64,000 nt of DNA from Candidatus Zixiibacteriota bacterium (lineage in GTDB: Bacteria > Electryoneota > B3-LCP): NCBI GenBank assembly GCA_003599535.1, contig QZKQ01000131.1:22612-86611 (forward strand), written 5' to 3'. Shown here piece by piece: positions 23,491 through 56,737 of the stretch. Within the stretch, counting starts at the first letter, position 1. Every line of letters starts with the position of its first letter. Below the pieces are notes generated by a model. That model worked only from the letters and a program-made list of their open reading frames with translations, was not told where the DNA came from and did not search any database. The position numbers and the translations under genes are program-made.

Positions 23491-25116
23491 TTACTTCAAC
23501 AGCACCATCTTGTTCTGTAGCATCAGGCCTTCGGCTTCCAGGCGGTAGAGGTACACGCCGGACGCCAAACCTCCGGCATGGAAATCCACCTGGTACGATC
23601 CGGCGTTCAGGGAACCGTCCAGCAAGCGGCGGACTTCGCGGCCGACCAGGTCATAGACCGACAAGCGCACCGGCCCGTTGCGGGTCAGCGCGAAGGTGAT
23701 GGTGGTGGACGGATTGAAGGGATTGGGCGCGTTCTGCTGCAGGGAAAATTCACGCGGCACCACCCCCGGATCCAGGGGCCGCACGCCCAGCGCGCCGGTG
23801 CCTTCCACCCAGAAGTTATCCACGAACATACCGGTGCCGCTGAACTGGTCGGGATCGGCCTGGAACAGGATACGCACCAGCACCGTGCTGCCGATATAGG
23901 GTGTCAGGTCAATGCCGTCCTCCGCCCCCTGCCACGTTTCCGACCATCTCTGGAACGCAACGGGCAGGCTGGAGAAGACGAAGTTCTGCCCGCCCGGCTG
24001 GCCGAAAGGATTGGACCAGTAGTACCAGTTGGCGCCGTTATCCGGGCTGATCTGCACGGTCCAGTAATCCACGTCGGGGAACGGATCCGGGTCGCCCACG
24101 TTGATGGTTCCGGCGTGATAGAAGTCGGCGAAGAAGCTGTCGCTGTCCGCCGAGAAGGTGGTCAGATCAATGGGCGGCGTGACCAAGGCGCTGTAAGCGA
24201 AGGGAGGGTATCCCGGATTGGCCGTATCGGAAAAGGCCATCACCGTGGGCGGGGAGGGCGGCGGGGGAAGCGTGAGCTCCTCCAGGTGCCACGCCGTGCC
24301 CACCACCATACCGGCCCGGGGGATCATGTCCGCCGGTTCCGCCAAGTCGTCGGCGTTATTGGCCAGGTAGGTGGTGGTCCCCTCGCGGATCACGATGTTG
24401 TCCACGAAGAAGCCAATGAAGGCCGAATCGTTGATGGTGGAACCAGCCGGGTCGGAGGCGAAGGCGAACCGGAGCACCACGTTGTTCTGGGTGAAGTTGG
24501 CCAGGCTGGAGTTGCCGTTGACCCACTGCCCGGGGCGTCCGCCGCCGGAGAACCCGGTCCATCCGGGAATGCCCGGGCCCAGGCCGAATTCAAACCCGAA
24601 GCTGTACACGCTGCTGGCCTCGTAGGGCGGCTGATTCACATTCAGCACCTGGAAATTGTTTCCCCCGTCCGTGGAGATCCACACGTTGGCGCCGTCCCAG
24701 GCGTCGTAGCCGGTCGGGAACGGCCCGAGCGGGTCTTCCAGGGCGTAGAACACGTTGAAGGTCAGGTTGGGGTTGGTCGCGCCGGAAAGATCCAGCACCG
24801 GCGAATCAAGATACTGCAACCAATGGTTATCATACCCCTCAATCAGGGTATCCCCAGCCCACCAGGACATGCCTTCAAATGCGTTGAAGGTGGTTTTCTG
24901 CCAGGCGGCGAAGTCGGTCAGGTCCAATCGCTGCCAATTGGGTGCGCCATTTTCAAACGTCTCAAAAAACAGGGTGTCATCCGTAGCCTCCAGACCCGCT
25001 CCCGGGTTCGTTGAGAGCGGGGTTTCCTGGATTTCCCGATCCACCGGCGCAGAATGAACCTGGAATCCCCACACGAGAACCACGGCGAAAAGCGCATAAA
25101 TTCCAAGTCGTCTCAT
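23491..25116 (-). CDS. T9SS-sorted secreted protein, paralog A of a three-gene tandem family (function unknown)
   Basis: Signal peptide MRRLGIYALFAVVLVWGFQVHSA. Family block HWLQYLDSPVLDLSGATNP ... DAWDGANVWISTDGGNNFQVL. C-terminal NAPNPFNPSTTITF ... GVYLYRLEAEGLMLQNKMVLLK T9SS C-terminal domain. Confidence 0.75.
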   Translation of the reverse strand: MRRLGIYALFAVVLVWGFQVHSAPVDREIQETPLSTNPGAGLEATDDTLFFETFENGAPNWQRLDLTDFAAWQKTTFNAFEGMSWWAGDTLIEGYDNHWLQYLDSPVLDLSGATNPNLTFNVFYALEDPLGPFPTGYDAWDGANVWISTDGGNNFQVLNVNQPPYEASSVYSFGFEFGLGPGIPGWTGFSGGGRPGQWVNGNSSLANFTQNNVVLRFAFASDPAGSTINDSAFIGFFVDNIVIREGTTTYLANNADDLAEPADMIPRAGMVVGTAWHLEELTLPPPPSPPTVMAFSDTANPGYPPFAYSALVTPPIDLTTFSADSDSFFADFYHAGTINVGDPDPFPDVDYWTVQISPDNGANWYYWSNPFGQPGGQNFVFSSLPVAFQRWSETWQGAEDGIDLTPYIGSTVLVRILFQADPDQFSGTGMFVDNFWVEGTGALGVRPLDPGVVPREFSLQQNAPNPFNPSTTITFALTRNGPVRLSVYDLVGREVRRLLDGSLNAGSYQVDFHAGGLASGVYLYRLEAEGLMLQNKMVLLK

Positions 25117-25231
25117 CACAATCTCCTTGCATGAATACATCACCATCGAAAAGAACATCCCATTCATACTCACCATAAATTACGAAATTCTCGAGAGGTG
25201 AATTGGCGCAAGCCCCTCTTCCCCACTCCCC

Positions 25232-25277
25232 GGCAGTCCCGGAAAACGCCAGGGGGCGATGCCCGGCATCGCCCCCT
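25232..25277 (-). terminator. Rho-independent terminator of T9SS paralog B
   Basis: agggggcgatgcccggcatcgccccct hairpin (25251-25277) followed by GGCGUUUUCC on the minus strand. Confidence 0.55.
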
Positions 25278-25308
25278 GCAGATGGTGCGGTAAGATTACC
25301 ACGGAATG

Positions 25309-27759
25309 CTACTTCAGCAGGACCATCTTTTCCTGCAGCGACTTGCCGTCGGCTTCCAGGCGGTAGATGTAGACGCCGGAGGCGAGACCCTGGGCTTCGA
25401 ATTCCACCGTGTGCGAACCCGCGGAGTAGTTGCCGCCGGCCAGCACGCGGATCTCACGGCCCGCCAGGTCGAACACCGCCAACCGCGCCATGCCTGCCTT
25501 CTCCAGGGAGAAGGTGATGGAGGTGGTGGGGTTGAACGGGTTGGGGCTGTTCTGATACAGCGCGAACACTTTGGGCGAGGCCGCGCCGGCGCCGGGATTT
25601 TCCACCCCCACGGCCGGCTGGAAGACCGTGCGGATGAAGAAGTCGTAGTCGGACGGACCGAAGTTGCCGCCGAAGTTGGTGAAGAAGTGACCCGCACCGT
25701 GCTCCAGGTCGTCACCGTAAACATGCGGCGTGCCGGCCGTATTCTGCACTTCGAACCACACCCAGAAATCCGTGTTGGCGTTCTGCAGGTAGGTTACGTC
25801 ATTCAGCGGGATTTCCTGCCATGCGGGCGAAACCGTCGTGACGGTGAAGGGGAAGTTGGTCACTTCGGGGCCCGGGGTGGCAGCGGTGCCAGCCTCGTAG
25901 ATGTGCACCTGCATGGAACCGGTGTCGCGGAACAGACCCTTCAGGTGCAGGGCGTCCAGGTTCTCCGTCACACCGTCAGCCGACGGGGTGAAGCGGACGT
26001 AGGGGCCCTGGCCGGTGGTGAAGTTGAAGTAGTAGATGGTGTCCTGCCAGGTGTACTGGCGGTTGTCGTAGCCGAATTCCAGCATATCGGCGGGGGTGAC
26101 TTCCACGAATCCTGCCTTGGAGGTGTCGTTGGCGCGGAATTCGTCGGTGGTCAGGTTGGTGTAGGCATCCAGGAAGTAGGTGCCCACGCCGGACGGGGTC
26201 CAGGTGAAGGTCTTGACCACGCTCTGGCCTGCAGGCACCGAAGCCCACGGCACCAGCGGCTGGCCGGGACCCATGTTGACCCGCCAGAACGCCGGGATCT
26301 GGCTCTCGTCGCTCATGCCCAGGTTGTGGATTTCCACCGAGCAGTCAAAGCTGTCGAAGTACAGCGAGGTGGGCATGGGAACGAGCAGCTTGCGAGCGGC
26401 CACGTCGTGATCCAGGCCGGAGAGATATTCCACCTGGAAGTTGTCCACGAACAGGCCCTGGCCGAAGTGGCTGTCCGAATCCGACTGGAACAGGATGCGG
26501 ACCATCACGTTGTGGCCCAGGTAGGGGGTCAGATCCAGAGCCCCCGAGGTGTTGACCTCGGACCACAGCATGTAGCCGGCCGGTACCTGGGTGAGCACGT
26601 AGTTGGTGCCGCCGGGGGAGCCCCACGGATTGGAGTAGTAGTACCAATTGACGCCGTCATCGGGGCTGACCTGCACGGTCCAGATGTCGTTATCCGGGAA
26701 CGGGTCGGGATCATTCACGTTGATCTGCCCGGCGATGTAGAAGTCCGCTAAAGCGGAACCGGAATCCGGATTGTACGGGGTCAGGTCAATGACCGGGGAA
26801 ATCAGCGAGTTCGACATCAGGGGTACATAACTGTTCATCTCGTTGGCCATCCGCGCGACGTGGGTGGGGGAAGGCGGCGGAGGCAGCGTGGAGGTGGCGA
26901 CGTGCCACAGGTTGCCGGCGACCAAGCCCGAGGTGGGAATCAGGTCACTGGGAGTGGCGACGCCCTGGGCATTGTTCTGCAGGTAGAAGGTGGCGCCATC
27001 GCGGACCGCGATGTTGTCCACGAACATGCCCTTCAGATTGGGGTCGTTGCCGGTGCTGTAGGCCGGGTCGGAGCAGAAGGCAAAGCGGATCTTGACCTGG
27101 GAGCCGATGAAGCTGGACAGGCTGGTGGAAGCGTTCACCCACGTGCCCGGCACGGCGCCGCCGGAGAAGCCGCCCCAGCCGGGGATGTTCGGACCCATGC
27201 CGAATTCGGACCCGAAGCTGTACAGGCTCTGGCAGTTGTAGGCCGGAGTGGTCATGGGCAGCACCTGCCAGGTGGTTCCGCCGTTGGTGGAGATCCAGAC
27301 GTTGCAGCCGTCCCAACCATCATACGGAGCCGTGGCGCCGGCCGGGTCTTCCACGGCATAGAACAGGTTGAAGGACAGGCTGGGATTAGTGGCGCCGGTC
27401 AGGTTCAGAGTGGGGCTGACCAGATACTGCAGCCAATGGTCGGAATAGCCGCCGATGGTGGAATCGCCGGACCACCAGGACAGGCCGCTGCCGCCATGGG
27501 CGTTGAAGTCATCCACGTGCCAGGTATTGATGTCGGTGTGGTCAACCATCTGCCAGCCGGGCGCGCCGGTTTCGAAATTTTCGAACAGCAGAACGACATC
27601 GGCAGCCCCCACGGACGGATCGGGGCTGGAGGGGATCTGAGGATTGTCAACGGCGACGTGCTTCATGCCGGGTGAGCTCAGGATTCCTACTTTGGCCCAG
27701 CCCTGCGATCCCAGCAACAATGCCAGAGCGAGGACAACCCAGATTACTCTTTTGGTCAT
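25309..27759 (-). CDS. T9SS-sorted secreted protein, paralog B
   Basis: Signal peptide. The same family block (HWLQYLVSPTLNLTGATNP ... DGWDGCNVWISTNGGTTWQVL) duplicated within the protein. C-terminal NSPNPFNPTTSITF ... GVYIYRLEADGKSLQEKMVLLK. Confidence 0.75.
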   Translation of the reverse strand: MTKRVIWVVLALALLLGSQGWAKVGILSSPGMKHVAVDNPQIPSSPDPSVGAADVVLLFENFETGAPGWQMVDHTDINTWHVDDFNAHGGSGLSWWSGDSTIGGYSDHWLQYLVSPTLNLTGATNPSLSFNLFYAVEDPAGATAPYDGWDGCNVWISTNGGTTWQVLPMTTPAYNCQSLYSFGSEFGMGPNIPGWGGFSGGAVPGTWVNASTSLSSFIGSQVKIRFAFCSDPAYSTGNDPNLKGMFVDNIAVRDGATFYLQNNAQGVATPSDLIPTSGLVAGNLWHVATSTLPPPPSPTHVARMANEMNSYVPLMSNSLISPVIDLTPYNPDSGSALADFYIAGQINVNDPDPFPDNDIWTVQVSPDDGVNWYYYSNPWGSPGGTNYVLTQVPAGYMLWSEVNTSGALDLTPYLGHNVMVRILFQSDSDSHFGQGLFVDNFQVEYLSGLDHDVAARKLLVPMPTSLYFDSFDCSVEIHNLGMSDESQIPAFWRVNMGPGQPLVPWASVPAGQSVVKTFTWTPSGVGTYFLDAYTNLTTDEFRANDTSKAGFVEVTPADMLEFGYDNRQYTWQDTIYYFNFTTGQGPYVRFTPSADGVTENLDALHLKGLFRDTGSMQVHIYEAGTAATPGPEVTNFPFTVTTVSPAWQEIPLNDVTYLQNANTDFWVWFEVQNTAGTPHVYGDDLEHGAGHFFTNFGGNFGPSDYDFFIRTVFQPAVGVENPGAGAASPKVFALYQNSPNPFNPTTSITFSLEKAGMARLAVFDLAGREIRVLAGGNYSAGSHTVEFEAQGLASGVYIYRLEADGKSLQEKMVLLK

Positions 27760-27930
27760 TGCATTTCTCCTTGCGGTAATGTGTATCGGGGTACTGTGGT
27801 GAGAGAGTGCTATACCGAAGGCGGGAAAAGCTTCCGGAAGTCGCTTTCCTGCTTTAATATAATGAAGGAATTCGGATTTAGCGATAAACTTGGCTCCTTT
27901 TTTTTATCGCACGCGCGATTCTCGCCGAAG

Positions 27931-30327
27931 TTACTTAAGCAGCACCAGGCGCTGGGTGCGGAGGTGCCCGTCCGCCTGCAGGCGGATCCAGTAATTCCCG
28001 GAGGGCTGACCGGTGGCTTCCCAGACGGCCGTGTGGTACCCGGCGCCCAAAGGACCCCGCAACAGCTCCGCCACCTTCCTCCCGGCCGCGTCGAACAGGT
28101 CCAACCGCACCTCGGCCGGTCCCGGCAAGGTGAAGGCGATCCGGGTCGTCGCGTTGAAAGGGTTGGGATAGTTGGGCAGCAGGTCGAGGCCATAGGTTCC
28201 CGGCCGGCCCGGTTCCGGATACACCGCCGCCGATCCCGTCAGAGTGGCGCGGATATTGAAATTCACCAGGGTCGGTTCCGCCTGCGCGCCGTTGAACACG
28301 AAGAAGTGTCCGGTGCTGTAGGCGTCTTCCAGGTGGCCGGTGATGTGCGGCGTCAGGTCCGGGGCGGTAATTTCAAACCAGACCCAGAAATCGGGGTGGC
28401 CGCCCTGCAGGTAGCCGACGTCGGAGATGTCTATTTCCATCCAATCCGGGTAGACGTTGGCGGCCGGTACGGTTACCGTGCGGCTGTACACCTCCGCACC
28501 GGGCGAGCCTCCCGTCCCGGCGGCGTAAATGTGCAGGTCGAAGGTTCCCGCCGAGTAAAACATGGCCTTGATAGTGTTGCCGGCCAGGATGCCGGGGAGG
28601 CCGTCCGCGGCCGGGGTGAAGCGCACCAGCGGTCCGTTGCCGGGGTTCAGGTTGAAGGGATAGAAATCAGGCAGGTAGGTGATCTGCCGGTGGTCGTATC
28701 CCAGTTCAAAAAAGCCGGGCGGTGTGACTTCGATCAGTCCCGCGACGCAGGTGTCGTTGCTGCGGACTTCGTCCAGGGTCAGTTGGGTGTAGGCATTCAC
28801 CCAGTATTGGCCGGCGGGAGGCGGCGTCCAGGTGAAGTTCCGGATCACGGTGTCGCCCGAAGCGACCGAAGACCAGGGGATCAAAGCGGTGGCGGCGCCG
28901 TCTACCGCCCAATAGGCCGGTACCTGGGGCGCGTTGTACAGACCATAATTGCAGAGCTGTACGGAACAGTTCACCGGCCCCTGACCCTGGTAGGTAGGAA
29001 ACGGCACGACGAGCCGGGTGGCGCCCACGTCATGATCCGGCAGGCTGCGGGACACCAGGGTTATGTCGTCAATGTACAGCCCGTCGCCCTGGCCGCCGTC
29101 GCTGTTGCCGTCGGTGACCATGCGAAAGCGGATTTTCACGTTCTGCCCCGCCCAAGGAGTCAGGTCGAGCACGGGGATGATGGTATTTTCCCAGTAGCCG
29201 TTGGACCGCTCCACCCACTGGAACTGGGATCCGTTGTGCGCCCAGTCGTAGGCCAGCGGCGTCCAGATGGCGCTGTTGGCCGGAGCCACTTCGATGTAGT
29301 AGTAATCGTCCAGGTAGTCGTCGTTGTCCCCGTCCACGTCCGGGAGATCGCAGTACACCCAATAGCTCAGGTAGGTGGCCGAATCAGCCGGCAGGGCCAC
29401 GGTGGGCGACACCAGGGCGTTGGAAAGGAAGTAGCGGTCGTCGCAGTTGCGGCTGTGGGAGGGGCTGTGGGATTCCCCGGTGGTCAGCACCCAGTAATTG
29501 CCCGACGGGGGACCGGCGCTCACGGTTAAAGCCGAAGGGTAGCCTCCCCCCTCAGCGTTGTTCGACAGGTATACGGTGCTGCCGGCGCGCACTTCGACGT
29601 TGTCAATGAAGAAGCCCAGCAGGGCGGGATTATCGGCGGTGCAGGTGGCGGCGTCGGAACAGAAGGCGAAGCGGAGGCGGACGTCGGGGTAGGCGTAGGC
29701 GGACAGATCGAAGCGCGCCTCGGTCCAGCCGCCGGACGACCCGGCCCAACCGGGAATGCCGGGACCCATGCCCCACAGCCAGCCGAAACCGTACAGGCTT
29801 TGACAGGTGTAGGCCGGATATTCCGGCTCCAGCACGTCCCAGGTGTTGCCGCCGGTGATGGAGATCCACACATTGCAGCCGTCCCAACCGTCGTACCCCG
29901 GAGTGTGGCTGGTATCCTCCACCGCCCAGTACAACTTCAGGGTCAAGGCCGGATCGGTCGTCCCGGCCAGGTTGATGACGGGGGTGACCAGGTACTGCAG
30001 CCAATGGTTATCGTAGCCCATCAGGCTGGTCTTTCCCGACCACCAGGAATGGCCACTGTAGGCGTTGTAGGTGTCGGTGTGCCAGGTCGGCCCCGGATTG
30101 GTGAGGTCCACCGCAGTCCAGTTGTTGGGACCGGTAGTGGTTTCGAAATCGGCGAAATAGATGACGGTATCCTCATCGGCCCCGGCAGGCATGCGGGCAG
30201 GATCGGACACTCGCACCGGTTGGGGTTGCGATGACCGCTCGATTTTTTCTCCCCATCCCGGCGCAGCCCACAGGGCCAACGTCAGGAGGAGTACCCAAGA
30301 CCTGCGCTTCATCCTTTGCTCCGACAT
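27931..30327 (-). CDS. T9SS-sorted secreted protein, paralog C
   Basis: Signal peptide. HWLQYLVTPVINLAGTTDP ... DGWDGCNVWISITGGNTWDVL block. C-terminal NYPNPFNATTRIAF ... GNYWIRLQADGHLRTQRLVLLK. Confidence 0.75.
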   Translation of the reverse strand: MSEQRMKRRSWVLLLTLALWAAPGWGEKIERSSQPQPVRVSDPARMPAGADEDTVIYFADFETTTGPNNWTAVDLTNPGPTWHTDTYNAYSGHSWWSGKTSLMGYDNHWLQYLVTPVINLAGTTDPALTLKLYWAVEDTSHTPGYDGWDGCNVWISITGGNTWDVLEPEYPAYTCQSLYGFGWLWGMGPGIPGWAGSSGGWTEARFDLSAYAYPDVRLRFAFCSDAATCTADNPALLGFFIDNVEVRAGSTVYLSNNAEGGGYPSALTVSAGPPSGNYWVLTTGESHSPSHSRNCDDRYFLSNALVSPTVALPADSATYLSYWVYCDLPDVDGDNDDYLDDYYYIEVAPANSAIWTPLAYDWAHNGSQFQWVERSNGYWENTIIPVLDLTPWAGQNVKIRFRMVTDGNSDGGQGDGLYIDDITLVSRSLPDHDVGATRLVVPFPTYQGQGPVNCSVQLCNYGLYNAPQVPAYWAVDGAATALIPWSSVASGDTVIRNFTWTPPPAGQYWVNAYTQLTLDEVRSNDTCVAGLIEVTPPGFFELGYDHRQITYLPDFYPFNLNPGNGPLVRFTPAADGLPGILAGNTIKAMFYSAGTFDLHIYAAGTGGSPGAEVYSRTVTVPAANVYPDWMEIDISDVGYLQGGHPDFWVWFEITAPDLTPHITGHLEDAYSTGHFFVFNGAQAEPTLVNFNIRATLTGSAAVYPEPGRPGTYGLDLLPNYPNPFNATTRIAFTLPGPAEVRLDLFDAAGRKVAELLRGPLGAGYHTAVWEATGQPSGNYWIRLQADGHLRTQRLVLLK

Positions 30328-30444
30328 AGCCGTCTGATTGTGTATGGCAACATATAAGTTACAATCCTTTCACGCGGATGTCAAGCCCCGTCTACGAAAA
30401 TCGGATGCCACCCATAAGATAACCTTGTCCAGGGCCTAAAAAAA

Positions 30445-30511
30445 GCGCAATCTTTTGCACTTGTGGTTTCTGGAAAGTTATCCGGAACCGATAAGGTGCA
30501 AAACATTGCGC
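30445..30511. promoter_or_regulatory. 15-bp inverted repeat GCGCAATCTTTTGCA / TGCAAAACATTGCGC (45-bp spacer) upstream of paralog C. On the minus strand it would also act as a terminator after the BMC genes.
   Basis: The first arm carries the same 18-mer as 8212-8229. On the minus strand the hairpin is followed by U7 (plus-strand aaaaaaa at 30438-30444). Confidence 0.5.
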
Positions 30512-30592
30512 TGGGTTATCCTGGGGCACTGACATGATTTTCGCGCTGGTTATTCGCCGGTGGAGGCAGGCGCCAGCACCGGCTGGTACTGT

Positions 30593-31093
30593 CTAAGAGC
30601 GGACGTGGAAGCGGCGCAACTCCGTAATCAGCAGATCTTTGCCGGCGCGGGAGATATCCCGGCCGGACAAGGGGAAACCGGGAGTCCGGCGGGCCAGGGA
30701 ACGCAACTCCTGCACCGACATTTTTTCCAAGTCACCCAAGGGAAAGCGGCCGCCGTTCTTGCCATCGGGGGTCACCGGGCCGGCCGGCGGTTCCGGATAG
30801 ATCAGGCGATCTTCCACTTCGTCGTGGGGGCGGGGGATGATGTGGGTGGCGACCAACTGCCCCACCCGCTCCGCAGCGCGGGCCCCGGAGTCCACCGCGG
30901 CTCGCACCGCTCCGACCTCACCGACGACTTCAACGGTGACCAGGCCGCCCGAAGTCCGCTCCCTGCGCAGGAGGGTCACGTGGGCGGCCTTCACCATGGC
31001 GTCCGCGGCTTCGATGGCGCCCACCAGGCCGCGGGTTTCGATCAGACCGAGAGCGCGTTCCGCCAGGGGCGGTTTGCCCTGTATTTCAGCCAT
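30593..31093 (-). CDS. BMC-H shell protein (PduA/EutM/CcmK family) with a ~70-aa C-terminal extension resembling a Rho-N/SAP-like helix-hairpin
   Basis: BMC domain [23 protein letters not shown] ... GAVRAAVDSG ... HIIPRPH. Tail ...LEKMSVQELRSLARRTPGFPLSGRDISRAGKDLLITELRRF. Confidence 0.7.
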   Translation of the reverse strand: MAEIQGKPPLAERALGLIETRGLVGAIEAADAMVKAAHVTLLRRERTSGGLVTVEVVGEVGAVRAAVDSGARAAERVGQLVATHIIPRPHDEVEDRLIYPEPPAGPVTPDGKNGGRFPLGDLEKMSVQELRSLARRTPGFPLSGRDISRAGKDLLITELRRFHVRS

Positions 31094-31112
31094 GCTGGGT
31101 CCCGGCTATGGA

Positions 31113-31409
31113 TTATTCCACGTTGGGGTTATCGCGCTGCGGAAGGATGGATTCGACTTCGTAGTGCGGGCGCGGAATGACGTGCACCGACACCAGTTCT
31201 CCCACCTTTTCCGCGGCGGTGGCGCCGGCGTCCGTGGCCGCTTTGACCGCGCCGACGTCGCCGCGCACGAACACGGTCACGTAACCGCCACCGATCTTCT
31301 CCTTGCCGACCAACTGCACTTTGGCGGCTTTGACCATGGCGTCCGCCGCTTCGATGGCTGCGACCAGCCCCCGGGTCTCGATCATGCCCAGGGCTTCCAG
31401 GGTACGCAT
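31113..31409 (-). CDS. BMC-H shell protein
   Basis: [37 protein letters not shown] ... VHVIPRPH. About 98 aa from the ATG at 31409. Confidence 0.8.
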
Positions 31410-31642
31410 GGTATCACCAGGCATACAATCTCCAGTTAATTCCAGTTGTGGTTTGAACTAAAAATAACGATTTTATACATCAAAGTCAATGATTTATTGC
31501 AGGATGTTTGGAAGGAGAATTCAGGGTTGCGAGGTTCCATGGAGTCTCTCTCTACGTTCTATTTCTTAAGAATTTACTTGTTTTCGCGAGAACTTGGTGT
31601 TTAATTAGTTTCAACGAAGGAAAAAGGAGTTACTCATTTAGA

Positions 31643-33103
31643 ATGCGGCTAATAATCATCCTGTTAACGGTCATCGGTGGACTATGTCTGGCAGCGTCGG
31701 CTATAACCTCCGGGCTTTCCCTGCATCCCCGTGACATCGAACGTACCATTTCCCCTGATGGGATGCTGGATGCCATCGTGCATTATGCCCTTCCTGCACT
31801 GTCACCGGGTTTGGCTTTGGTCGGCATTTGTCTGCTGATTCTATCCGGCCTGTTTTACCTCCTCACTCGGGTTTTGGATCGTAACCCGGACTTCGGTGGG
31901 GCCAAATTCATCCTTCTGCTGATGATCGTACAAGCCTGCTTCGGATTAATCTATGCACACTACGCAGATCATAATCTTAATGATGACTCTCTCTGGTACC
32001 ATACTCAAGCCGGCAATATTGCTTCAGGCAAGCCGGTCGCCAACGAGGACGGAACTCCCACAACCTACTGGCCGATTGGGTATTCTTTGATTTTAGGTTT
32101 GTTCTACCGCTTGTTCGGCGCGAATGTCACCGTCGCTGAGGTATTAAATATATTTTTTGCAGCCGGCATCACTCTCTTTACCTACCTGATTGGCCGGACC
32201 CTATTCTCCGGCAAAGCCGCCCGCCAGGCAGCCTTGGTGATGGCGGCATGGCCATCCATAATCTTCTTCGTCATTCTGCCTTTCGCCGATCTGTTTTTAA
32301 CCTTTCTGGCTACGGTTATATTCTATTTATCCATTAAACCGGCCTCGCGCACCAATACTCTGCTACTCGGAATGATGGTCGGCTTGGCGACACTTACGAG
32401 GCCGACCTTTCTGTTTTTCCCCTTGGTGATCGCATTTTACCGGTTGCTGCGGGATCGGCAATGGAAGCCGGTGCTGGCGCAAACTGCGATTATCATCCTT
32501 ATAACTGAATTGATACTGCTGCCGTGGCAGATCCGCAATTATCGAGCCTTTGACGATTTTATCCTGGTCTCCACCAATGGCGGAATTCATGCCTGGATGG
32601 GCAATAATCCCCATGCCAGCGGAGGCTTCATCGGGTTGTGGATGTTTATTCCCGATTCGACCTACAAATGGATGAATCGCTCCCTAAATGAAGTCGAGCG
32701 CGAACAATACGCGTATCAGCAGGCCAAGACCTACATCAAGAGCGAACCCCTCCGGGCAATAGCTAACTGGCCCAAAAAGATCGTGTATTTATATTATCGT
32801 GACAGCAAATCTGTGACTTACGGCTTGGGAGATACCTATAAAATGCTCGCCCCTGTCGTGGTATGCGCGCTGATCATTATCGCTGAAGCCTATTATTTCA
32901 TTCTCGGCGCGGCCTTCCTGATCGTACTTCTTTTTTCCCTTCGCCGGCCTCCGTCACCATGGCTCTGGTTCGTGCTGGGAAGTGGTGTCTACTTTACGGC
33001 CATAAATCTGCCCTTTATCGCCGAAGGCCGCTACCATATGCCGCTGCTGCCGCTGTTTGCTCTGGTGGCTGTCACGGGGAAAGCCATCCAAAACACCAAA
33101 TAA
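31643..33103 (+). CDS. Glycosyltransferase family 39 (ArnT/PMT_2-like, GT-C fold) integral membrane protein
   Basis: About 12 TM segments. PMT_2-like core TYWPIGYSLILGLFYRLFG ... LFTYLIGRTLFSGKAARQAALVMAAWPS. Lower GC than surrounding genes. Confidence 0.65.
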   Translation: MRLIIILLTVIGGLCLAASAITSGLSLHPRDIERTISPDGMLDAIVHYALPALSPGLALVGICLLILSGLFYLLTRVLDRNPDFGGAKFILLLMIVQACFGLIYAHYADHNLNDDSLWYHTQAGNIASGKPVANEDGTPTTYWPIGYSLILGLFYRLFGANVTVAEVLNIFFAAGITLFTYLIGRTLFSGKAARQAALVMAAWPSIIFFVILPFADLFLTFLATVIFYLSIKPASRTNTLLLGMMVGLATLTRPTFLFFPLVIAFYRLLRDRQWKPVLAQTAIIILITELILLPWQIRNYRAFDDFILVSTNGGIHAWMGNNPHASGGFIGLWMFIPDSTYKWMNRSLNEVEREQYAYQQAKTYIKSEPLRAIANWPKKIVYLYYRDSKSVTYGLGDTYKMLAPVVVCALIIIAEAYYFILGAAFLIVLLFSLRRPPSPWLWFVLGSGVYFTAINLPFIAEGRYHMPLLPLFALVAVTGKAIQNTK

Positions 33104-33107
33104 AACC

Positions 33108-34649
33108 ATGATTCAACCTGAATCACCACCCGACCACTCTCATCGCGACCTGGCGCCAGACGCAGCGCAGAGCTCAATTCTGCGGTTGTCCTTTTGTCTC
33201 GCATCGATTGCCCTGGGCTTATTGTTGATTTGGGGAATCCTGGAATTCTCTGGTTTCAAAGTGCAAAAGCTTGAGGGGTTCCTGGCAGCTGATGGTTCAT
33301 TTGACGGCCCGGCATCCATGGCTATCCGCGCCATGAACATAGGATTGCCGGCGGCAGCGATAACCCTGTTGATTATCTCCGTGCTATGGCTGCTCTTTGA
33401 ACGATTTCATTGGAGTCCATTCCGGTTGCGGGAGAGATCTTTTCTCCTCTTCATCATCATCCTGAAATTGGGCCTCAGCCTGGCATATATTTATTCCATG
33501 CCTTATCAACCATGGACCGATGATCATTGGTATCTGACCGCTGCCCAGCATTTGTCACAAGGCATTAACCCTCATATCAACGGTCAACCCACCGCGCTTT
33601 GGCCTATCGGCTATCCCATGATCCTTTCTGTGTTTTTCCGAATATTTGGGGCTACGGTTATCGTTGCACAGTGGGTGAATGTATTGACTCTGGTAGGAAT
33701 AACCCTGTTGACCTATCACCTTGGTAAGGATCTCTTTGGAACCGCCACCGCCCGCCGCGCCGCACTGGTCATCGCGCTGATGCCGTCCCAGATCTTCTTC
33801 GCCTTGCCGATCATGTCAGACCCTCTTCAGGCTTTGCTGATGTTGGGTCTGATTTATTTAGCGATCAAACCCCTGAACAGGTGGAGAACCATTTCCATGG
33901 GATTGATCTTCGGATTTTCCATTCTGGTAAAACCGGTAATACTATTTTTTCCAGCCTTTTTGGCACTCTATTGGTATTGGAAAGGCGAACCCTTGAGAAG
34001 CACGATTTTTACTACGGCATGGATTCTAATACTGGGGATCATTACCGTTATTCCCTGGCAAATCCGCATGCAGCGCGACTTCGGCAGATTCGCCCTGGTT
34101 TCCACCCAGGGAGGACACAATATCTTGCAGGGAAATAATCCCCGGGCCAGTGGCGGAACCATGGACGTTCGCGATTTCGTCCCGGATAGCTTACTGAAAC
34201 GCTTCAGCACTCTGAATGAAGCGGAGCGTGATGCCCTGATGGCCCAAACAGGAATCGAGTGGATCAAAAATAATCCACTGTGGGCCATGCGACTCTGGAT
34301 TAAAAAATTCATAGTTCTCTTCTATGAAGACAGCAAATGTGTCTCGCGCAGTGTGCACCTCTCGTACGTAGATTTGCCCGCCGCAATGGTCGCGACGATG
34401 ATCTTCCTGACAGAAGGTTATTACTACGCCCTCGGCTTGGCTTTTCTGTTGGCTTCAGTGGGATTCCTGCGTCGGGAGCGGTTGACCGCCCGTTCCTGGT
34501 TGATTTACGGCACACTTCTCTACACCATCGCCATCCACTTGCCCTTCACCGCCGAAGGGCGTTACCATACGGTTCTCCTGCCCCTGTTCGCCATGATCGC
34601 GGTGTGGGCGATGAAGGAAACCACCTCGCGGCCGAAAAAAGCCGCCTGA
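33108..34649 (+). CDS. Glycosyltransferase family 39 (ArnT/PMT_2-like) integral membrane protein, paralog
   Basis: Paralogous to the previous gene (TALWPIGYPMILSVFFRIFG ... LLTYHLGKDLFGTATARRAALVIALMPS). Lower-GC region. Confidence 0.65.
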   Translation: MIQPESPPDHSHRDLAPDAAQSSILRLSFCLASIALGLLLIWGILEFSGFKVQKLEGFLAADGSFDGPASMAIRAMNIGLPAAAITLLIISVLWLLFERFHWSPFRLRERSFLLFIIILKLGLSLAYIYSMPYQPWTDDHWYLTAAQHLSQGINPHINGQPTALWPIGYPMILSVFFRIFGATVIVAQWVNVLTLVGITLLTYHLGKDLFGTATARRAALVIALMPSQIFFALPIMSDPLQALLMLGLIYLAIKPLNRWRTISMGLIFGFSILVKPVILFFPAFLALYWYWKGEPLRSTIFTTAWILILGIITVIPWQIRMQRDFGRFALVSTQGGHNILQGNNPRASGGTMDVRDFVPDSLLKRFSTLNEAERDALMAQTGIEWIKNNPLWAMRLWIKKFIVLFYEDSKCVSRSVHLSYVDLPAAMVATMIFLTEGYYYALGLAFLLASVGFLRRERLTARSWLIYGTLLYTIAIHLPFTAEGRYHTVLLPLFAMIAVWAMKETTSRPKKAA

Positions 34650-39565: not shown

Positions 39566-40936
39566 ATGTTCATCGACTCCCACGCCCACCTGGATTTCCC
39601 TGAACTGAAGCCCCACCTGGACGCGGTCCTGGCCAACGCCCGCATGGCCGGCGTCACCCACATCCTGACGGTGGGCATTGACGGCGCCACCAACCAGGCG
39701 GCGTACGATATCGCCCGGGCGCACGAAAGCGTGTACGCCTCGGCGGGGTGGCACCCCCACGACGTCTCCAGGGCCGACGCCGGGCTGGAACGCCACCTGG
39801 AAGATTTCCTGTCGCGCCCCAAGGTCGTGGCCCTGGGCGAAGCGGGGCTGGACTACTACCGCGACCTCTCCCCGCGGGACACCCAGCGGGAAGTCTTCGC
39901 CCGCATTGTCCGGCTGGCCCGGCGGCTGGACCGGCCGCTGATCGTCCACTGCCGCGACGCCTTCCCCGACACGTTTGAGATCCTGCATCGCGAGGGCGAA
40001 GGGCAGGTCAAGGGGGTGTTCCACTGCTTTTCCGGCGGGCCGGACGAGCTGCGCAAAGCGCTGCACCTGGGCTTCTTCGTCTCGTTTACCGGCAACATCA
40101 CCTACAAGAACACGGCCCTCCTCCCCACCCTGCAGGCCGCTCCAGTGGACCGCCTGCTGCTGGAAACCGACTGCCCCTTCATGACCCCGCATCCGCACCG
40201 GGGCAAACGCAACGAACCGGCCTACGTGCCCCTGGTGGCGGCCAAAATTGCTGAAGTCAAGGGCCTGTCGGTGGAGGACGTGGCCCGCATTACCCGCTAC
40301 AACACCTGGCGGCTGTTCGGTATCGGCGAAGCCCCCGAGCAGCGGTTCGTCTATCCCATCCGCAATTCGCTCTACGTGGCCCTGACCTCCCGCTGCACCA
40401 ACGACTGCCGTTTCTGCCCCCGGCACGTGCATCCGGTGGTCAAGGGGCATTATATCGGCATGACGGAAGCCGAAGAGCCATCCCCCGACCAGGTCATCGC
40501 CGCGCTGTCGGACCTGGGGAATTACGACGAAGTGGTCTTCTGCGGGTTCGGCGAACCGACCATCCGCCTGGAAGAGTTGAAGCAGATTGCCCGGTGGGTA
40601 AAAGGACAGGGCAGGAAGGTGCGGCTGGACACCAACGGCCAGGCCAACCTGATCCACGGCCGGGACATCGTCCCCGAACTGGCGGGGTTGGTAGACGCCG
40701 TCTCCATCAGCTTGAACGAGCACCGCGCCGACCTGTACCAGGCCCTGGTGCACAGCGAGTTTGGGGAGGCCGCCTTTCAGGCGCTGCTGGATTTCGCCCG
40801 GCGGTGCGTGGAATTGCTGCCCGAAGTGACGCTGTCTGTGGTGTCGTATCCGGGAGTGGACCTGGAGGCGGCGCGGAAGGTGGCCGAAGGCACCGGGGCG
40901 AAGTTCCGGGTGCGGGAATACAACGAGGTTGGGTAA
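39566..40936 (+). CDS. Fusion protein: TatD-family metal-dependent hydrolase (N) plus TatD-associated radical SAM-like domain (C)
   Basis: MFIDSHAHLDF, GLDYYRD, ETDCPF (TatD). Then SRCTNDCRFCPRH (CxxxCxxC) and a ~190-aa partial radical-SAM fold. Confidence 0.7.
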   Translation: MFIDSHAHLDFPELKPHLDAVLANARMAGVTHILTVGIDGATNQAAYDIARAHESVYASAGWHPHDVSRADAGLERHLEDFLSRPKVVALGEAGLDYYRDLSPRDTQREVFARIVRLARRLDRPLIVHCRDAFPDTFEILHREGEGQVKGVFHCFSGGPDELRKALHLGFFVSFTGNITYKNTALLPTLQAAPVDRLLLETDCPFMTPHPHRGKRNEPAYVPLVAAKIAEVKGLSVEDVARITRYNTWRLFGIGEAPEQRFVYPIRNSLYVALTSRCTNDCRFCPRHVHPVVKGHYIGMTEAEEPSPDQVIAALSDLGNYDEVVFCGFGEPTIRLEELKQIARWVKGQGRKVRLDTNGQANLIHGRDIVPELAGLVDAVSISLNEHRADLYQALVHSEFGEAAFQALLDFARRCVELLPEVTLSVVSYPGVDLEAARKVAEGTGAKFRVREYNEVG

Positions 40937-41168: not shown

Positions 41169-43217
41169 CTATTTCCGGCTGGCGGTCTGCTTTTCCGGGG
41201 CGGGTTGCAGCCGGTCTTCGACTTCTTCCAGCTTCTTCTGTAGCGTGGAGTAAATTTCTGTCGCGGCATCGTAGTTGTGCAGCGGTCCGGCTTCTTTCAG
41301 GATCTTGGCGCGGCGCTCGATCTCATCCAGGGCTTTGGCCTGATCCACAGTTTTGCGGCCGTTCTGCTGAGCGGATTCCAGCGTGGCACGCACTGATTCC
41401 AACTTCACCGCCAGGCGTTCCTGGAGTTGAGTCAATTCCTGGGACCACTGTGTCAACATGGCGGCGTAATCTCGGCTGTGACAGTCGGCGCATCGGTCGC
41501 CCACACCCTCCAGAGTCAGCGGCTTGGTGTGATCGTGGCAACCGTCGCAGGTAACCTCGGCCGCAGCCATGACATCGGGTCTCTCTTCCAGGCCCAGTTC
41601 ATGGCTGGCGCCGCGGTAGAGATCATCCTGCCGCCAGTGACAGGTGACGCAGGCGATAGGATAATCACCATGGTGGCATTCCTTACAGGATTGCCGCTCC
41701 ACGACTCCCAGGCGATGATTATCCGGTTCGTGGCAACTGGTACAGGGCTGCTCCAGATCCTGCGTGTGCATGGTATGAGGGAAAGCCATGCGTTCATAGG
41801 TCACTTCATCCGGCCGGGGAATGCGGGAATGGCACAGGGATTGGCAGTAACCGTCGGATTGCCCCAGGAGCTGGCCCAAGTCCATCTGTTCGCTTAAACC
41901 CAGGGCCGGGCGGGCGGCTTTCAGACGATCTCCGGATCGTTTCAGCAGGTCAATGGCGTAGAAAGGGTTATGCGTCAGCCGGCCGTCTTTTACGAAATCG
42001 TAATTATACCGTGCCTCTTCCACCGCCACGCGGGCTGTGGAAACGTCCCGGCCGCGTGCTTCCGCAGCGCGCAGGGCGCTTTCCGTTTGCCGCAGGTGCG
42101 GCTCCAGGGAGCTCAGCATCACCGGCGCCAGACGAATCCAGTCATCCAGCATCAGGTCATAGCCTGGACCATGGCACTTGAGACAGGATTCCCGCCGCGT
42201 CTTCATGGCCAGTGCTCCGAACTCCACCTCCCCAATGGCTTCACCCTTGCTGTGGCACCCGTCGCAGGAAACCTGCGCCAGAAACATCTTGGCCGGCTCA
42301 TCCGGAATGCCCTGGCCGCCGGCGCCGAAATATAACTGCTTTTCCGGCGTGTGCAGTTTGACGTGGCACACTTCACAGCGCACTTCCAGAGAACTGATCA
42401 ATCCGAACTTCCCGTGTTCGATCTGTCCATGGCAGCGGAAGCAATCGATATGCTCGCCGTTGACATGGACTTCGTGCACCAGTGGGAAGTCGCCAAAACT
42501 CTCCTGGCGCGATACGTGACAGGTGAAGCAGGCCTCCTGAGGCACGGCGGCGTCACCTTTCAGCACGTCCAGGTGGCATTCACTGCACTGCAAGCCAATA
42601 TCGACATACGACTGGTGGCTGAACTGGAAACCCTGGTGATCGACGGATTCCGTGGGATTGCCGTGACAATTCTGGCAGCCGCTCTGGGACTGACCCGGCT
42701 GGGTGCCTTTGAAATGGCACAGGAAGCAGGAACTGTGGTCGACCTGCAGGTAGGATCCCGGCACACGATGGTTATGGCAGGTGGTGCAATGCAGCTCCAC
42801 ACCTCGCATCGGCTTGGAAAGGTGAACGCTGTGATCGAACGAAATATCCCGTTCGAAGTGCGCTTCGGTGTCCAGAGTCTGGTTTTCGTGGCAGTTCAGA
42901 CAGGATTCGTCCTTTACCTCCGTGGTGGGCCGCCAATCGCGGGAAGTGACTACGTAATCCAGGGTCCAGTTGCTGAGCAGATGCCGCCGGTCCGGGTGGC
43001 AGGCCACGCAGGCCACGTCGCGGTGGTTGGAGTGCGCCCAAAGATTGTAGTAAGGACGCATGGTGTGGCAACTTATGCAGGTATCCGGGTCGCTGCTGAT
43101 GAAGTAATAGCCGATATTCAGGAGCAGGAACAGTCCCAGCAACGAGACGATGATCAGTAGAATTTGGCGGTAGTAGGTGGCCAACCCTCGGATGATCGCC
43201 CGCAGAAAATCCCTCAT
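41169..43217 (-). CDS. Membrane-anchored multiheme c-type cytochrome, about 17-18 haem sites: NapC/NirT/CymA-like N-terminus fused to a long polyheme extension
   Basis: N-terminal TM, then CISCH...CVACH (NapC-type). 17 CxxCH plus one CxxxCH motif in total (CLNCH, CTTCH, CFLCH, CQNCH, CSECH, CFTCH, CFRCH, CEVCH, CDGCH, CLKCH, CQSLCH, CTSCH, CKECH, CVTCH, CDGCH, CADCH). Confidence 0.8.
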
Positions 43218-44173
43218 GAGCGCCCTCCCCGGGAGGCCTTCCGCTGGGATTGTCCGGAAGATTCCTGGTTTTTCCGTTGCATAATCTCCTCGTACTCCAG
43301 TGGATGCTCATCCAGCATCTCTTCCTTGGAGATCTTGCCGGTGATCCAGGTTTTAGACATGGGGAATTTGTGGGGGTTCAGGTGCACGTTGTAGAAGTGC
43401 CAAATGATGATGGCCAGAGTGGCCAGCAGGGCTTCATCGGAATGGGCTTCCTTGGCGATATCCAGGAAGAACTTGGGCAGGAACTGCATCGTGACGCTCT
43501 CAAACCAGAGCAGCGAGCCGGAGCCGATCATGATGATCATGCCCCAATATACCGCCCAGTAGTCGAACTTTTCGATGTAACTGAAGCGACCGAAGCGGGG
43601 CTTTTGATCGCTCTTGCCCAGGTAGTATTTCAGTTGCTGCACGTAATCCAGGGCGTCTTGAAGTTTCGGCAGGAGCAGAAGAAAATCGCGTCGGCCTGCC
43701 TTGGACAGGATCGTGTAAACTACGTGGAACACGCCTACAAACGCCAGCGCCGTGGCTGCGATGCGGTGGATGATAGCGGAGCTTTCAATGCCACCCAGCA
43801 GGTTAATGACGAAGTGGGAGAGGCCGGCTTCATGGAATTTCAGCGGCAGGCCGGTGATGATCAGGGCGATGATCGAGGTCAGCATGGTGACATGCTGTAA
43901 TCTCAGGTTCAGCGACAGGCGGACAAACTCTTCCGGCTCCTCTTTCGGCATTTTCACCGGCGGGGCAGGCTGGGGCACGGGGGCGGGACGTACCTGGGCC
44001 GCCAGGCGTTCGGCTTGCTGGTCGAGGTTCACGTCCAGCCCGGAAATCATCTCATCCAGGCGCGCGTCACTCAGTTCGCTGTCGGGAACCCCGCGAGCCT
44101 GCATCTTTTCGCGCAGAGCCCGGCGCAGGGCTTCCCGCAACACATGATCGGAGTTGGAATTGCTGGCAGTCAT
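43214..44173 (-). CDS. Di-heme b-type cytochrome membrane subunit (HyaC/FdnI-like, PF01292-type)
   Basis: About 4-5 TM with conserved His in helices ([28 protein letters not shown]). Start taken at MTASN (44173). The upstream ORF extension overlaps the preceding gene. Confidence 0.65.
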
Positions 44174-44193
44174 GCAGTGAAGGTTATTCCAGG

Positions 44194-45237
44194 TTAATGG
44201 TTGCCTTTTCGATGGCCCAGGAGGCGCTTGGACAGGTCCAGGATAATATTCCCGATCAACCCCACTAAGGTCAGGATGGTCAGCCACTTGAAAAAGCTGG
44301 CGACGTAGTAGATGATGCCCGCCTCGGGGCTCTTGGCGTTGACGTGGATCTTGCCTTTGGCCCAATTGGCGTTGGCCTGGGGGTGACACTTGCCGCAGGT
44401 TTTGGGGATGTTGGCCGGGTGCACCAACGATTCCGGGTCGGTGGGCGGCAGGATGTCATGAGCCCCATGGCAGGAGGCGCAGTTGGCGGCCGTGGTCGAA
44501 CCGAACTGGCTGGCGATGCCGTGAAAACTTTCCGTGTAAGATTCGACCTGTTCGGTGGTCAGTCCCGCGGGCCCCACGATGGTCTCGGCGGCATGGCAGT
44601 GCCCGCAGGTCTCGGGAATATTGGCGGAGAAAACCTGCGAGGAAGGAGCCAGAGGCGACGCGATGGTGTGCTCGCCATGACAATCCGTACAGGTAGGAGT
44701 GCTGTCATGCCCTTCCTTTAACAGCTTTCCGTGGATGGAGTGGGTGTAATGCGAGTAAATCTCCAGGTGACAGCGACCGCATAGATCCGGGATGTTCTGC
44801 CGGTGCAAGGGAGATTCGGCCGACTGCGGCGGATGGATATTATGGGCTCCGTGGCAGTTCTGACACAGGGGCGCCTTACGGTTGCCGGATCGAGCGGCTT
44901 GCCCGTGGACGCTCTCACGGTATTGGTCGTAAACGGGCAGTTCCGGGGCGCCGGCCAGGTTGCCGATGTAGTGACAGGAGGTGCAGTCTACCCGTTGCAA
45001 CCCGGGCTGGTGGGGGATTTCCACCACGTCGCGATGGCAGTCAGTGCATTCGTGGCGGGGATGGACGGATTGAGCCAGAGAATCCGGAGGCACATGCAGT
45101 GACACCCGCACGGAATCGGCTCCCACCACGTGAAAATTAGGCTTGGCATGGCAAATTTCGCATTTTTGCACCGGAGCGGCAAGCGCGACCGTCAGGCCAA
45201 TCGGGATCAGGGCAAAGCAGAGCAACCATCGTTTCAT
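44194..45237 (-). CDS. Periplasmic nine-haem c-type cytochrome with C-terminal TM anchor
   Basis: Signal peptide. 9 CxxCH (CEICH, CTDCH, CTSCH, CQNCH, CGRCH, CTDCH, CGHCH, CASCH, CGKCH). Repeated NIPxxCGxCH units. Hydrophobic C-terminus. Confidence 0.8.
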
Positions 45238-45917
45238 GCCGCGTTCTCCCCTCCTGAGGACACGCGGCGGTACTCGGCCGGATGCTTCTCCTTTAACTCG
45301 TCCATGGTGATGCGCCCCGTGATCCAGCTCATGTTCATGGGGAAATTGCCCGGCGCCAGATGTACATTGTACAGGTGCCAGAACAGCAGGATGATGAAGA
45401 TCAGCAGCCCCTCATAGCCGTGAATGACCAGGGTTAAATCCACCAGCCACTTAGGTGCTATTGCCACGGCTTGAGGCCCCATCCACAGTATCAGACCGGT
45501 CACTGACAGGCTGATGACGCCCAGGATGACGCCGAAGTACTGCACTTTTTGAAAGTAGGTGAAGCGATCCCATTCCGGCGGGGCTGCGGTTTTGCCCAAG
45601 TCATACCGGAAGCTCTGGAATCCCTTGCCCAAGTCGCCCTTGCGGGGTAGCATCGCCTGAAAGAGCTCCTGGCCACGGCGGGAGATCAGGGTGTAGCCGT
45701 AATGGTAGATCGAAACCGCAATCAGGACCACTGCCGAAATGCGATGGATCAGGCCCCGGCCTTCCAGTCCCCCTTCCAGTTCGATCATGAACCGGCCCCA
45801 GTAGGTATCATGGTATCTCAGGGACAGCCCGGTCAAGGCCAGGGTAATCAGGCTAAGCGCCAGAATCACATGTTGGACGCGTTCCGACACGGTGAAGCGA
45901 AGCACTGTCGCGGGCAT
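45234..45917 (-). CDS. Di-heme b-type cytochrome membrane subunit, paralog (HyaC/FdnI-like)
   Basis: ERVQHVILALSLITLALTG (PF01292 TM1 pattern), HRISAVVLIAVSIYHYGY, WHLYNVHLAPGNFP. Start taken at MPATVL (45917). Confidence 0.65.
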   Translation of the reverse strand: MPATVLRFTVSERVQHVILALSLITLALTGLSLRYHDTYWGRFMIELEGGLEGRGLIHRISAVVLIAVSIYHYGYTLISRRGQELFQAMLPRKGDLGKGFQSFRYDLGKTAAPPEWDRFTYFQKVQYFGVILGVISLSVTGLILWMGPQAVAIAPKWLVDLTLVIHGYEGLLIFIILLFWHLYNVHLAPGNFPMNMSWITGRITMDELKEKHPAEYRRVSSGGENAA

Positions 45918-45918
45918 C

Positions 45919-54939: not shown

Positions 54940-55140
54940 AGGAGTATCCTGGTAATTCTGCGGATATAAGTCATTGCATATAATGTAACAAAAAACACCG
55001 GGGAGTATCAAGACTTTTCCCCGGAATCTGCACGTAAGGCGAAGATCGCCCGCGCAGTGGCGTTCACTTTCTTTAAACCCAGAAAACCCTTCGCACGCGC
55101 GGCGAAGGGTTTTCTGGCAAGCGGAGGGATACGGGGAAAA

Positions 55141-56556: not shown

Positions 56557-56737
56557 ATTTTCTCCTATCGGTTCACCGCATGTTTTCAATTTAAAATATT
56601 TTCATGCTATTGTCAAGCATTATTATTAAAATTACAATATTATTTTGATATTAGGATATTCAGTAGGGACAACAAAAAAGGACTACCGGTATATCCGGTA
56701 GTCCTTTCCGGCGGCTCGAGCCGCTTCATTCACAGGA

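Follow-up and report, generated by a model that had tools for sequence, protein, structure and literature searches.

A probable fragmented-type microcompartment shell gene pair in a Zixibacteria-like genome, with a predicted SAP/Rho_N-like domain at the end of one hexamer protein

A 64-kb stretch of contig QZKQ01000131.1 from a Candidatus Zixiibacteriota bacterium (hereafter the window) carries two adjacent genes for hexamer-forming shell proteins of bacterial microcompartments (BMCs), one short BMC-H protein and one BMC-H protein that ends in a C-terminal extension, or tail. It is very probable that these genes represent a shell pair of the ‘fragmented’ (FRAG) class of microcompartments, and that the tail carries a domain resembling the helix-extended loop-helix (HeH) fold of SAP and Rho N-terminal domains. 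On balance, we lean toward a fuller reading in which both proteins are facet hexamers of a FRAG3-like microcompartment in a Zixibacteria-like genome, with the tailed protein acting as a cytosolic tether to the nucleoid. The tethering mechanism itself is proposed tentatively and by analogy, and we give it somewhat less than an even chance.

The shell gene pair and its relatives

The features of the pair, all on the minus strand, are as follows.

31113..31424, minus strand: short ‘basal’ BMC-H shell protein, 103 aa (Pfam BMC, E=2.4e-30)
30593..31093, minus strand: tailed BMC-H protein, whole gene, 166 aa (Pfam BMC, E=3.4e-27)
30827..31054, minus strand: BMC domain of the tailed protein, residues 14-89 (Pfam; AlphaFold2 pLDDT 88-98)
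30740..30826, minus strand: variable linker of the tailed protein, residues 90-118 (alignment A1; AlphaFold2)
30596..30739, minus strand: basic conserved C-terminal domain of the tailed protein, residues 119-166 (predicted SAP/Rho_N/LEM-like fold)
31461..31489, minus strand: candidate sigma-70-like promoter upstream of the pair, TTGACT-17-TATTTT (consensus match)
30443..30512, minus strand: terminator-like hairpin and T-run inside a 17-nt inverted repeat, downstream of the pair

The short gene comes first, and only 19 nucleotides separate the two open reading frames (ORFs), whose codon-position GC content is gene-like (GC at third codon positions, GC3, of 0.80 in a window of 61% GC). The Pfam BMC domain (PF00936) covers residues 11-86 of the short protein and residues 14-89 of the tailed protein, with scores of 104.7 and 94.6 bits against a cutoff of 24.5 and with model positions 1-75 of 75 aligned. 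Both proteins are therefore members of the BMC-H group by a full-length, colinear match above the gathering score, which agrees with the claim of the first-pass annotation that two canonical BMC-H genes lie side by side on this strand. Because the match is colinear and complete, the domain is not circularly permuted. The short protein also exceeds the NCBIfam EutM equivalog cutoff (137.5 versus 133 bits), and the alignments of the tailed protein to the NCBIfam EutM, CsoS1 and EutK models are confined to its BMC domain. Direct reading of the sequences reveals the inter-hexamer edge motifs VKAAKV and IPRPH in the short protein and VKAAHV and IPRPH in the tailed protein, which represent the KAAN-like lysine motif, with its N changed to K or H, and the (P/A)RPH motif. 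Residues K35, R88, P89 and H90 are invariant or nearly so in an alignment of 33 full-length relatives of the tailed protein (alignment A1).

All 49 likely genes of the window, called from GC3, were scanned against Pfam, and the window was searched by tblastn with the pentamer protein (BMC-P), DeoC, phosphomutase and nucleoside phosphorylase of a related locus. The Pfam scans of these genes revealed no BMC-P, BMC-T, aldehyde dehydrogenase, PTAC, DeoC, RpiB, PduS or glycyl-radical enzyme, the tblastn queries found nothing in the 64 kb, and the only BMC-domain matches are the two BMC-H genes themselves. The earlier statement that the pair stands alone in the window, with no vertex protein, BMC-T protein or signature enzyme, is thus borne out.

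The same pair recurs in other genomes. The tailed protein is 99% identical to a protein from a Candidatus Zixiibacteriota metagenome-assembled genome (MAG), and full-length relatives with 52-72% identity are encoded in LCP-89, Fidelibacterota and many MAGs. Twelve independent loci were compared, drawn from Fidelibacterota (CP070787), Calditrichaeota, WOR-3, an ‘uncultured Bacteroidaceae’ bin and others, and including three Zixibacteria-/LCP-89-like contigs that are syntenic with the window (L002, L011 and L012) and two contigs of a further lineage. At all 12, a short BMC-H gene directly precedes the tailed gene on the same strand. The short protein is 81-94% identical across phyla and the tailed protein approximately 50-70%. 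Flanking genes vary by lineage, with the housekeeping genes ispE-spoVG-prs beside the pair in L003 and L013 and with type IX secretion system (T9SS) cargo and epimerase genes in the window, L002, L011 and L012, and therefore the pair has no conserved enzymatic neighbor. Only L003 and L013 carry a BMC-related operon nearby, located ~6 kb from the pair and encoding a PGM/PMM-family mutase, BMC-P, DeoC and a pyrimidine nucleoside phosphorylase. In the other 10 loci BMC-P is absent within 10 kb, and the three syntenic loci have no other BMC-related gene.

This arrangement corresponds to a class described in the catalog of Sutter et al. (2021, Nat Commun 12:3809; PMC8217296). Shell genes of FRAG microcompartments lie at up to six genomic places, mostly distant from enzymes, and they are found in Ignavibacteriae, related phyla and many candidate phyla (PMC8217296). 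Types FRAG1 and FRAG3 have one standard BMC-H protein and one with a C-terminal extension termed ‘analogous to EutK’, and FRAG8 is sometimes similar (PMC8217296, Supplementary Data 2). FRAG3, known from Calditrichaeota, KB1 and LCP-89, combines DeoC beside BMC-P with two BMC-H proteins, one of which has an extension of ~50 aa (PMC8217296). The window pair likewise comprises one standard and one C-terminally extended BMC-H protein, and its genes are separated from enzymes and from other shell genes over 64 kb, as they are in L002, L011 and L012. FRAG1 and FRAG3 share with these loci both the isolation of shell genes from enzymes and an occurrence in the FCB group and in candidate phyla that include LCP-89 and Calditrichaeota. 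The DeoC/LacD aldolase gene beside BMC-P that marks FRAG3 is absent from the window and present in L003 and L013, so that two of the 12 loci agree with the published FRAG3 description. Therefore, the window pair fits the FRAG description and is closest to FRAG3, and a pair with such a tail is a known and widely distributed trait of fragmented-type microcompartments. The catalog differs from our account in that it gives its Zixibacteria loci no numbered type and the extension no fold.

Anatomy and distribution of the tail domain

As judged from structure prediction and alignment A1, the tail begins with a disordered linker and ends in a conserved, confidently folded domain of ~45 aa. Linker residues 90-118 are unconserved in A1, and the linker core (residues 100-115) is predicted to be disordered, with AlphaFold2 confidence (predicted local distance difference test, pLDDT) below 50 in the full-length model. 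The conserved block that follows, L..M.V.ELR.LAR....FPL.GR.IS.AGK..L..EL, includes the invariant residues V127, R131, A134, R135, G144, R145, A150 and L155, and the tail sequence quoted in the first-pass annotation is present at residues 122-162. AlphaFold2 applied to the tail alignment predicts four short helices at a pLDDT of 89.3, and in the full-length model the tail scores 86-90 beside a confident BMC domain. The domain is free of cysteine. Disordered low-complexity sequence, which had been envisaged as the outcome that would count against the earlier assignment, is not what the predictions and the alignment reveal; they point to a conserved, folded domain.

The predicted structure of the tail exhibits the helix-extended loop-helix arrangement. 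Foldseek comparisons reveal resemblance to regions of Rho, the 3'hExo SAP domain and the FAN1 SAP domain, with query-normalised template modeling (TM) scores of 0.63-0.70 and with E-values above 1 because the domain is tiny (51 residues). Searches with the Pfam models yielded matches that all fall below the gathering scores: the window tail scores 14.2 bits for SAP (PF02037; cutoff 23.9) and 12.8 bits for Rho_N (PF07498; cutoff 24.9), 10 of 29 family tails match SAP (best E 7e-3) and nine match Rho_N (best E 1.9e-4), and Rho_N is matched by five of 150 full-length members (best E 2.2e-5). The resemblance is supported by the predicted fold and weakly by sequence, and consequently the Rho-N/SAP-like pattern noted in the first-pass annotation holds at the level of the modeled HeH fold and stays below threshold at the level of sequence scores. 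EutK_C matched none of the 29 family tails in Pfam, no NCBIfam model matches the tail, and comparison of the tail profile with Protein Data Bank sequences gave chance-level matches only.

Relative to Rho N-terminal, SAP and LEM domains, the tail is distinguished by several features. No tested member reaches a Pfam gathering score, extra short helices give four helical segments in the model, and the best 150 matches place the domain solely at the C-terminal end of BMC-H proteins, where no second domain accompanies it consistently. The tail has no curated Pfam or NCBIfam family.

When only the tail served as query, a word-indexed homologue search returned nothing, and relatives were found by an exhaustive profile search. 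When a 51-position tail profile was searched against 1.84 billion representative proteins, it matched 739 clusters at E<=1e-3 and 377 at E<=1e-10. Architectures were read from the best 150 of the 739 clusters, and the restriction to BMC-H proteins applies to those 150. In every one of them the domain is located at the extreme C-terminus, in proteins of 42-368 aa, and 113 contain a Pfam BMC domain; on inspection, the rest resemble metagenomic fragments truncated at the 5' end or divergent BMC domains. No further domain recurs beside the tail and the BMC domain in this set. The terminal domain is basic (mean net charge +3.4 in 149 sequences), and the linkers of relatives are acidic, with lengths of 21-244 aa and a mean net charge of -14. 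Long-linker forms carry in the linker a second conserved amphipathic motif, DTIxRLRxEALG, which the linker of the window protein lacks.

The tail is also found in microcompartment loci of other types. L016 is a complete glycyl-radical locus that encodes two BMC-H proteins, the glycyl-radical enzyme and its activase, PduV/EutP, an EutJ-like protein, BMC-P and EutQ, followed by the tailed BMC-H protein. L015, an aldehyde dehydrogenase (AldDh)/PTA metabolosome locus, encodes Fe-ADH, a BMC protein, PduV/EutP, an EutJ-like protein and BMC-P, then the tailed BMC-H protein, and after it a BMC protein, PTA, two more BMC proteins and aldehyde dehydrogenase. Because the tail is common to compartments of unrelated chemistry, it is expected to serve a generic, substrate-independent organelle function. 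The first-pass annotation had called a BMC-H protein with such a tail unusual. That judgment does not survive, since the Sutter et al. catalog already describes FRAG shells with an extended BMC-H protein, the pair is present at all 12 loci and the domain extends to 739 clusters.

Several smaller observations concern the members of this family. The long-linker members (P0130-P0270, 200-368 aa) have highly acidic linkers rich in lysine and glutamate, and in these the motif DTI[SA]RLR[RK]EALG is located ~30-60 residues before the terminal domain. P0245 (335 aa) has a tandem pair of BMC domains plus the tail. A profile scan of the genome collection with a narrow tail alignment produced six loci, and one Firmicutes-like tailed BMC-H gene is on a 1-kb contig.

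Possible roles of the tailed hexamer

In the solved HO, GRM2 and carboxysome shells, non-permuted BMC-H proteins have their termini on the concave side, which faces the cytosol. If the same holds here, six tail domains per hexamer should project into the cytosol. We propose that the shell genes of this organism would be scattered over the chromosome, away from the pentamer and enzyme genes, and that the short protein would be the highly conserved bulk facet hexamer. The tailed protein would be a specialised minor hexamer that co-assembles in the facets through the same K/RPH edge motifs, with each subunit extending a disordered linker that ends in a small, arginine-rich helix-extended-helix domain. 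The six outward basic domains would most likely bind nucleoid DNA, RNA or another ubiquitous cytosolic partner, and such binding would anchor, space and partition the compartments in the manner proposed for EutK. The invariant arginine residues of the window tail, its net charge of +4 and its isoelectric point of 11.2 fit a putative nucleic-acid-binding function. The analysis establishes the identity of the genes, the conservation of the pair and of the tail domain, its predicted fold and its distribution, and from these we infer which way the tails face, what they bind and that they position compartments.

Two characterized shell proteins provide the precedents for this proposal. The C-terminal extension of PduK carries a putative Fe-S motif. 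This extension affects compartment localisation and is described as disordered (PMC12487888), whereas the window protein ends in a predicted folded, basic and cysteine-free domain; the two proteins share the BMC-H domain and an extension that influences, or in our case may influence, compartment location. Deletion of eutK leaves Eut compartments static at the poles, EutK controls their subcellular distribution, and its positively charged C-terminal domain has been proposed to bind nucleotides and to function in partitioning (PMC12487888). EutK shares with the tailed protein a single BMC domain, a linker and a small, ordered, positively charged C-terminal domain suspected of nucleic-acid binding, and it is likewise a minor shell component. 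However, the terminal domain of EutK is a basic helix-turn-helix domain rather than a predicted SAP/Rho_N-like HeH domain, and linker length is highly variable in the present family.

Several points weigh against the tethering proposal. The window protein does not belong to the EutK family, as it scores 69 bits against the NCBIfam EutK cutoff of 218 and covers model positions 4-83 of 166, and on sequence grounds the two C-terminal domains appear to be analogous and not homologous. The Rho_N and SAP matches are all under the gathering scores, and the Foldseek E-values exceed 1. In addition, the argument that the tails face outward draws on shell structures from other BMC types, and the BMC-P and cargo genes are assumed, from the catalog and from the relatives, to lie elsewhere in this genome.

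A bolder version of the proposal is that the tail represents an unnamed, BMC-H-specific branch of the SAP/Rho_N fold that would act as a universal, ParA-independent nucleoid tether, serving the positioning and inheritance of many BMC types (FRAG, glycyl-radical and aldehyde-dehydrogenase), and whose linker length would determine how far the shell lies from the chromosome. We consider this generalization rather doubtful. The main alternative to nucleic-acid binding is that the tail is a protein-protein adaptor, docking on shell proteins, on a cytoskeletal or GTPase partner or on a cytosolic enzyme, and that it could in this way stabilize facets, gate pores or recruit enzymes to the shell exterior. 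HeH folds do also bind proteins, but across the 12 FRAG-type loci the pair lacks a conserved partner gene, and the conserved surface of the domain is net positive and rich in invariant arginines, which is typical of phosphate-backbone binding; an adaptor role is therefore judged to be unlikely. The suggestion of the first-pass annotation that the tail is an encapsulation or scaffold peptide has a lumen-directed form, in which the tail recruits cargo enzymes and would offset the missing recognizable encapsulation peptides of fragmented-type genomes. Hidden Markov models for such peptides indeed found nothing in FRAG genomes (PMC8217296), and the second amphipathic motif of the long-linker relatives could be read in the same direction. 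However, that motif is missing from the linker of the window protein, the non-permuted BMC domain should, judging by established shell structures, have its C-terminus on the concave face that points outward, the same tail is found in glycyl-radical and AldDh loci that possess standard cargo-recruiting parts such as EutQ, and DeoC in L003 and L013 bears an N-terminal extension of its own. Topology and the occurrence of the tail in loci with standard encapsulation machinery thus make this explanation improbable.

The lack of BMC-P in the window, and within 10 kb of the pair in most of the related loci, would also accord with two BMC-H proteins that assemble without pentamers into open sheets, tubes or nucleoid-associated lattices and form no closed organelle. 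A BMC-P search that returned no match in a complete Fidelibacterota genome or on the contig of the window is uninformative on this point, because it was word-indexed and scored only 152 candidates. We find such open lattices quite improbable, given that the catalog reports BMC-P triplets (green, grey and orange clades) elsewhere in FRAG genomes and that its tree files include a Zixibacteria genome with BMC-P and a PduT-like BMC-T, labelled ‘fragmented (omitted)’ (PMC8217296), and given that BMC-P is encoded 6 kb from the pair in L003 and L013. A last possibility is that the tail captures nucleic-acid fragments as the substrate of a compartment that degrades nucleosides or deoxyribose, similar to the SPU type. 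BMCs of the SPU type have been linked to nucleic-acid catabolism (PMC8217296), and the BMC-P gene of L003 and L013 shares its operon with phosphomutase, DeoC and pyrimidine nucleoside phosphorylase genes. Even so, these enzymes use nucleosides and sugar phosphates rather than polymers, no nuclease is associated with the pair, and substrate capture for a DeoC-type pathway is weakened by the fact that the same tail occurs in loci for unrelated substrates, of the glycyl-radical and AldDh/PTA types. We regard this last explanation as very improbable indeed.

The locus adds one more case to the fragmented microcompartments of uncultured FCB-group bacteria, which have been catalogued but whose function is enigmatic. 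What is gained is a sharper picture of the extension, which is predicted to be a folded, basic domain of ~45 residues and which is present in at least 739 clusters and in several unrelated BMC types. The remaining interest lies in this uncurated HeH-like domain, restricted to BMC-H proteins among the best 150 matches, and in the tethering hypothesis. If nucleoid tethering is correct, the tail offers a testable handle on the positioning and inheritance of metabolosomes that do not have McdAB-like systems, and engineered shells could also use it as a natural tag for display on the outside.

Transcription signals and neighboring genes

The pair is consistent with a self-contained two-gene operon, because promoter-like and terminator-like sites bracket it. 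The promoter candidate (31489-31461) is the one consensus match found, compared with 0.6 expected by chance. Downstream, a hairpin with a T-run at 30462-30443 lies within a 17-nt inverted repeat on the minus strand, whose arms (30444-30460 and 30496-30512) are 94% complementary, flank a 35-nt spacer and are accompanied by a T7 run. This repeat exceeds the length of a typical intrinsic terminator. An Rfam scan of the intergenic regions around the pair produced nothing meaningful, and the hairpin region has no family. The first-pass annotation had referred to a shared inverted repeat upstream of the genes, but none was found there, and the downstream repeat is the only strong one. The short gene has an internal ATG at 31409 that would yield an alternative product of 98 aa, and the start at 31424 is preceded by GGAG 5 nt upstream. 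Orthologues begin at either position, and the difference is trivial.

Three of the related loci encode a strongly hydrophobic membrane protein of 128-129 aa after the tailed gene (L002, 10532-10918; L011, 6748-7134; L012, 10532-10921). This protein is absent from the window, where the next gene lies only 265 nt beyond the tailed gene, and it is thereby ruled out as an obligatory partner of the pair. The DeoC proteins adjoining BMC-P in L003 (4163-4984) and L013 (4108-4947) have an N-terminal extension of ~65 aa that consists of an amphipathic helix (MSVDALVERVVNEM / MNLDHLVDKVVDEL) and then a conserved cysteine-rich motif, CNWCWVCP[DE]CR. It is possible that this extension serves for encapsulation or metal binding and labels DeoC as cargo.

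Directly downstream of the pair in the window, three tandem genes for large secreted proteins of 561, 816 and 798 aa (23491-30327, minus strand) encode InhA-like MAM domains. The first two proteins end in a T9SS C-terminal sorting domain (Por_Secre_tail) and the third in a FlgD_ig-like domain, and one or two InhA-like/MAM genes hold the same position in L002, L011 and L012. Directly upstream are two adjacent paralogous genes for PMT_2 (GT-C type) membrane glycosyltransferases (31508-34649, plus strand), which overlap by 47 nt and form a low-GC island (50-53% versus 61% for the window; GC3 of 0.58-0.61 versus ~0.8). The corresponding position is taken by one PMT_2 gene in L011, by a gene for an unrelated 419-aa membrane protein in L002 and by a methyltransferase gene in L012. 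This slot looks variable and possibly horizontally acquired.

Elsewhere, the window encodes housekeeping proteins (TsaE, TsaB/D-like, UvrD, QPRTase and SelA), GH57 glycogen enzymes, sugar epimerases and M16 peptidases. Three multiheme c-type cytochromes of 682, 347 and 411 aa (41169-47154, minus strand), with Cytochrome_C7, c3 and MtrC-like domains, are interleaved with two cytochrome b561-type membrane proteins, an arrangement suggestive of a module for electron transfer in the periplasm or outside the cell. Two paralogous B12-binding radical-SAM enzymes are encoded in tandem (53524-56589 and 51904-53346, both minus strand) beside the gene for the selenocysteine synthase SelA. A single ORF of 456 aa (39566-40936, plus strand) combines a complete TatD-type DNase domain with a radical-SAM domain, and the same fusion, adjoining a gene for EIIA-2 of the phosphotransferase system (PTS), is conserved in L012.
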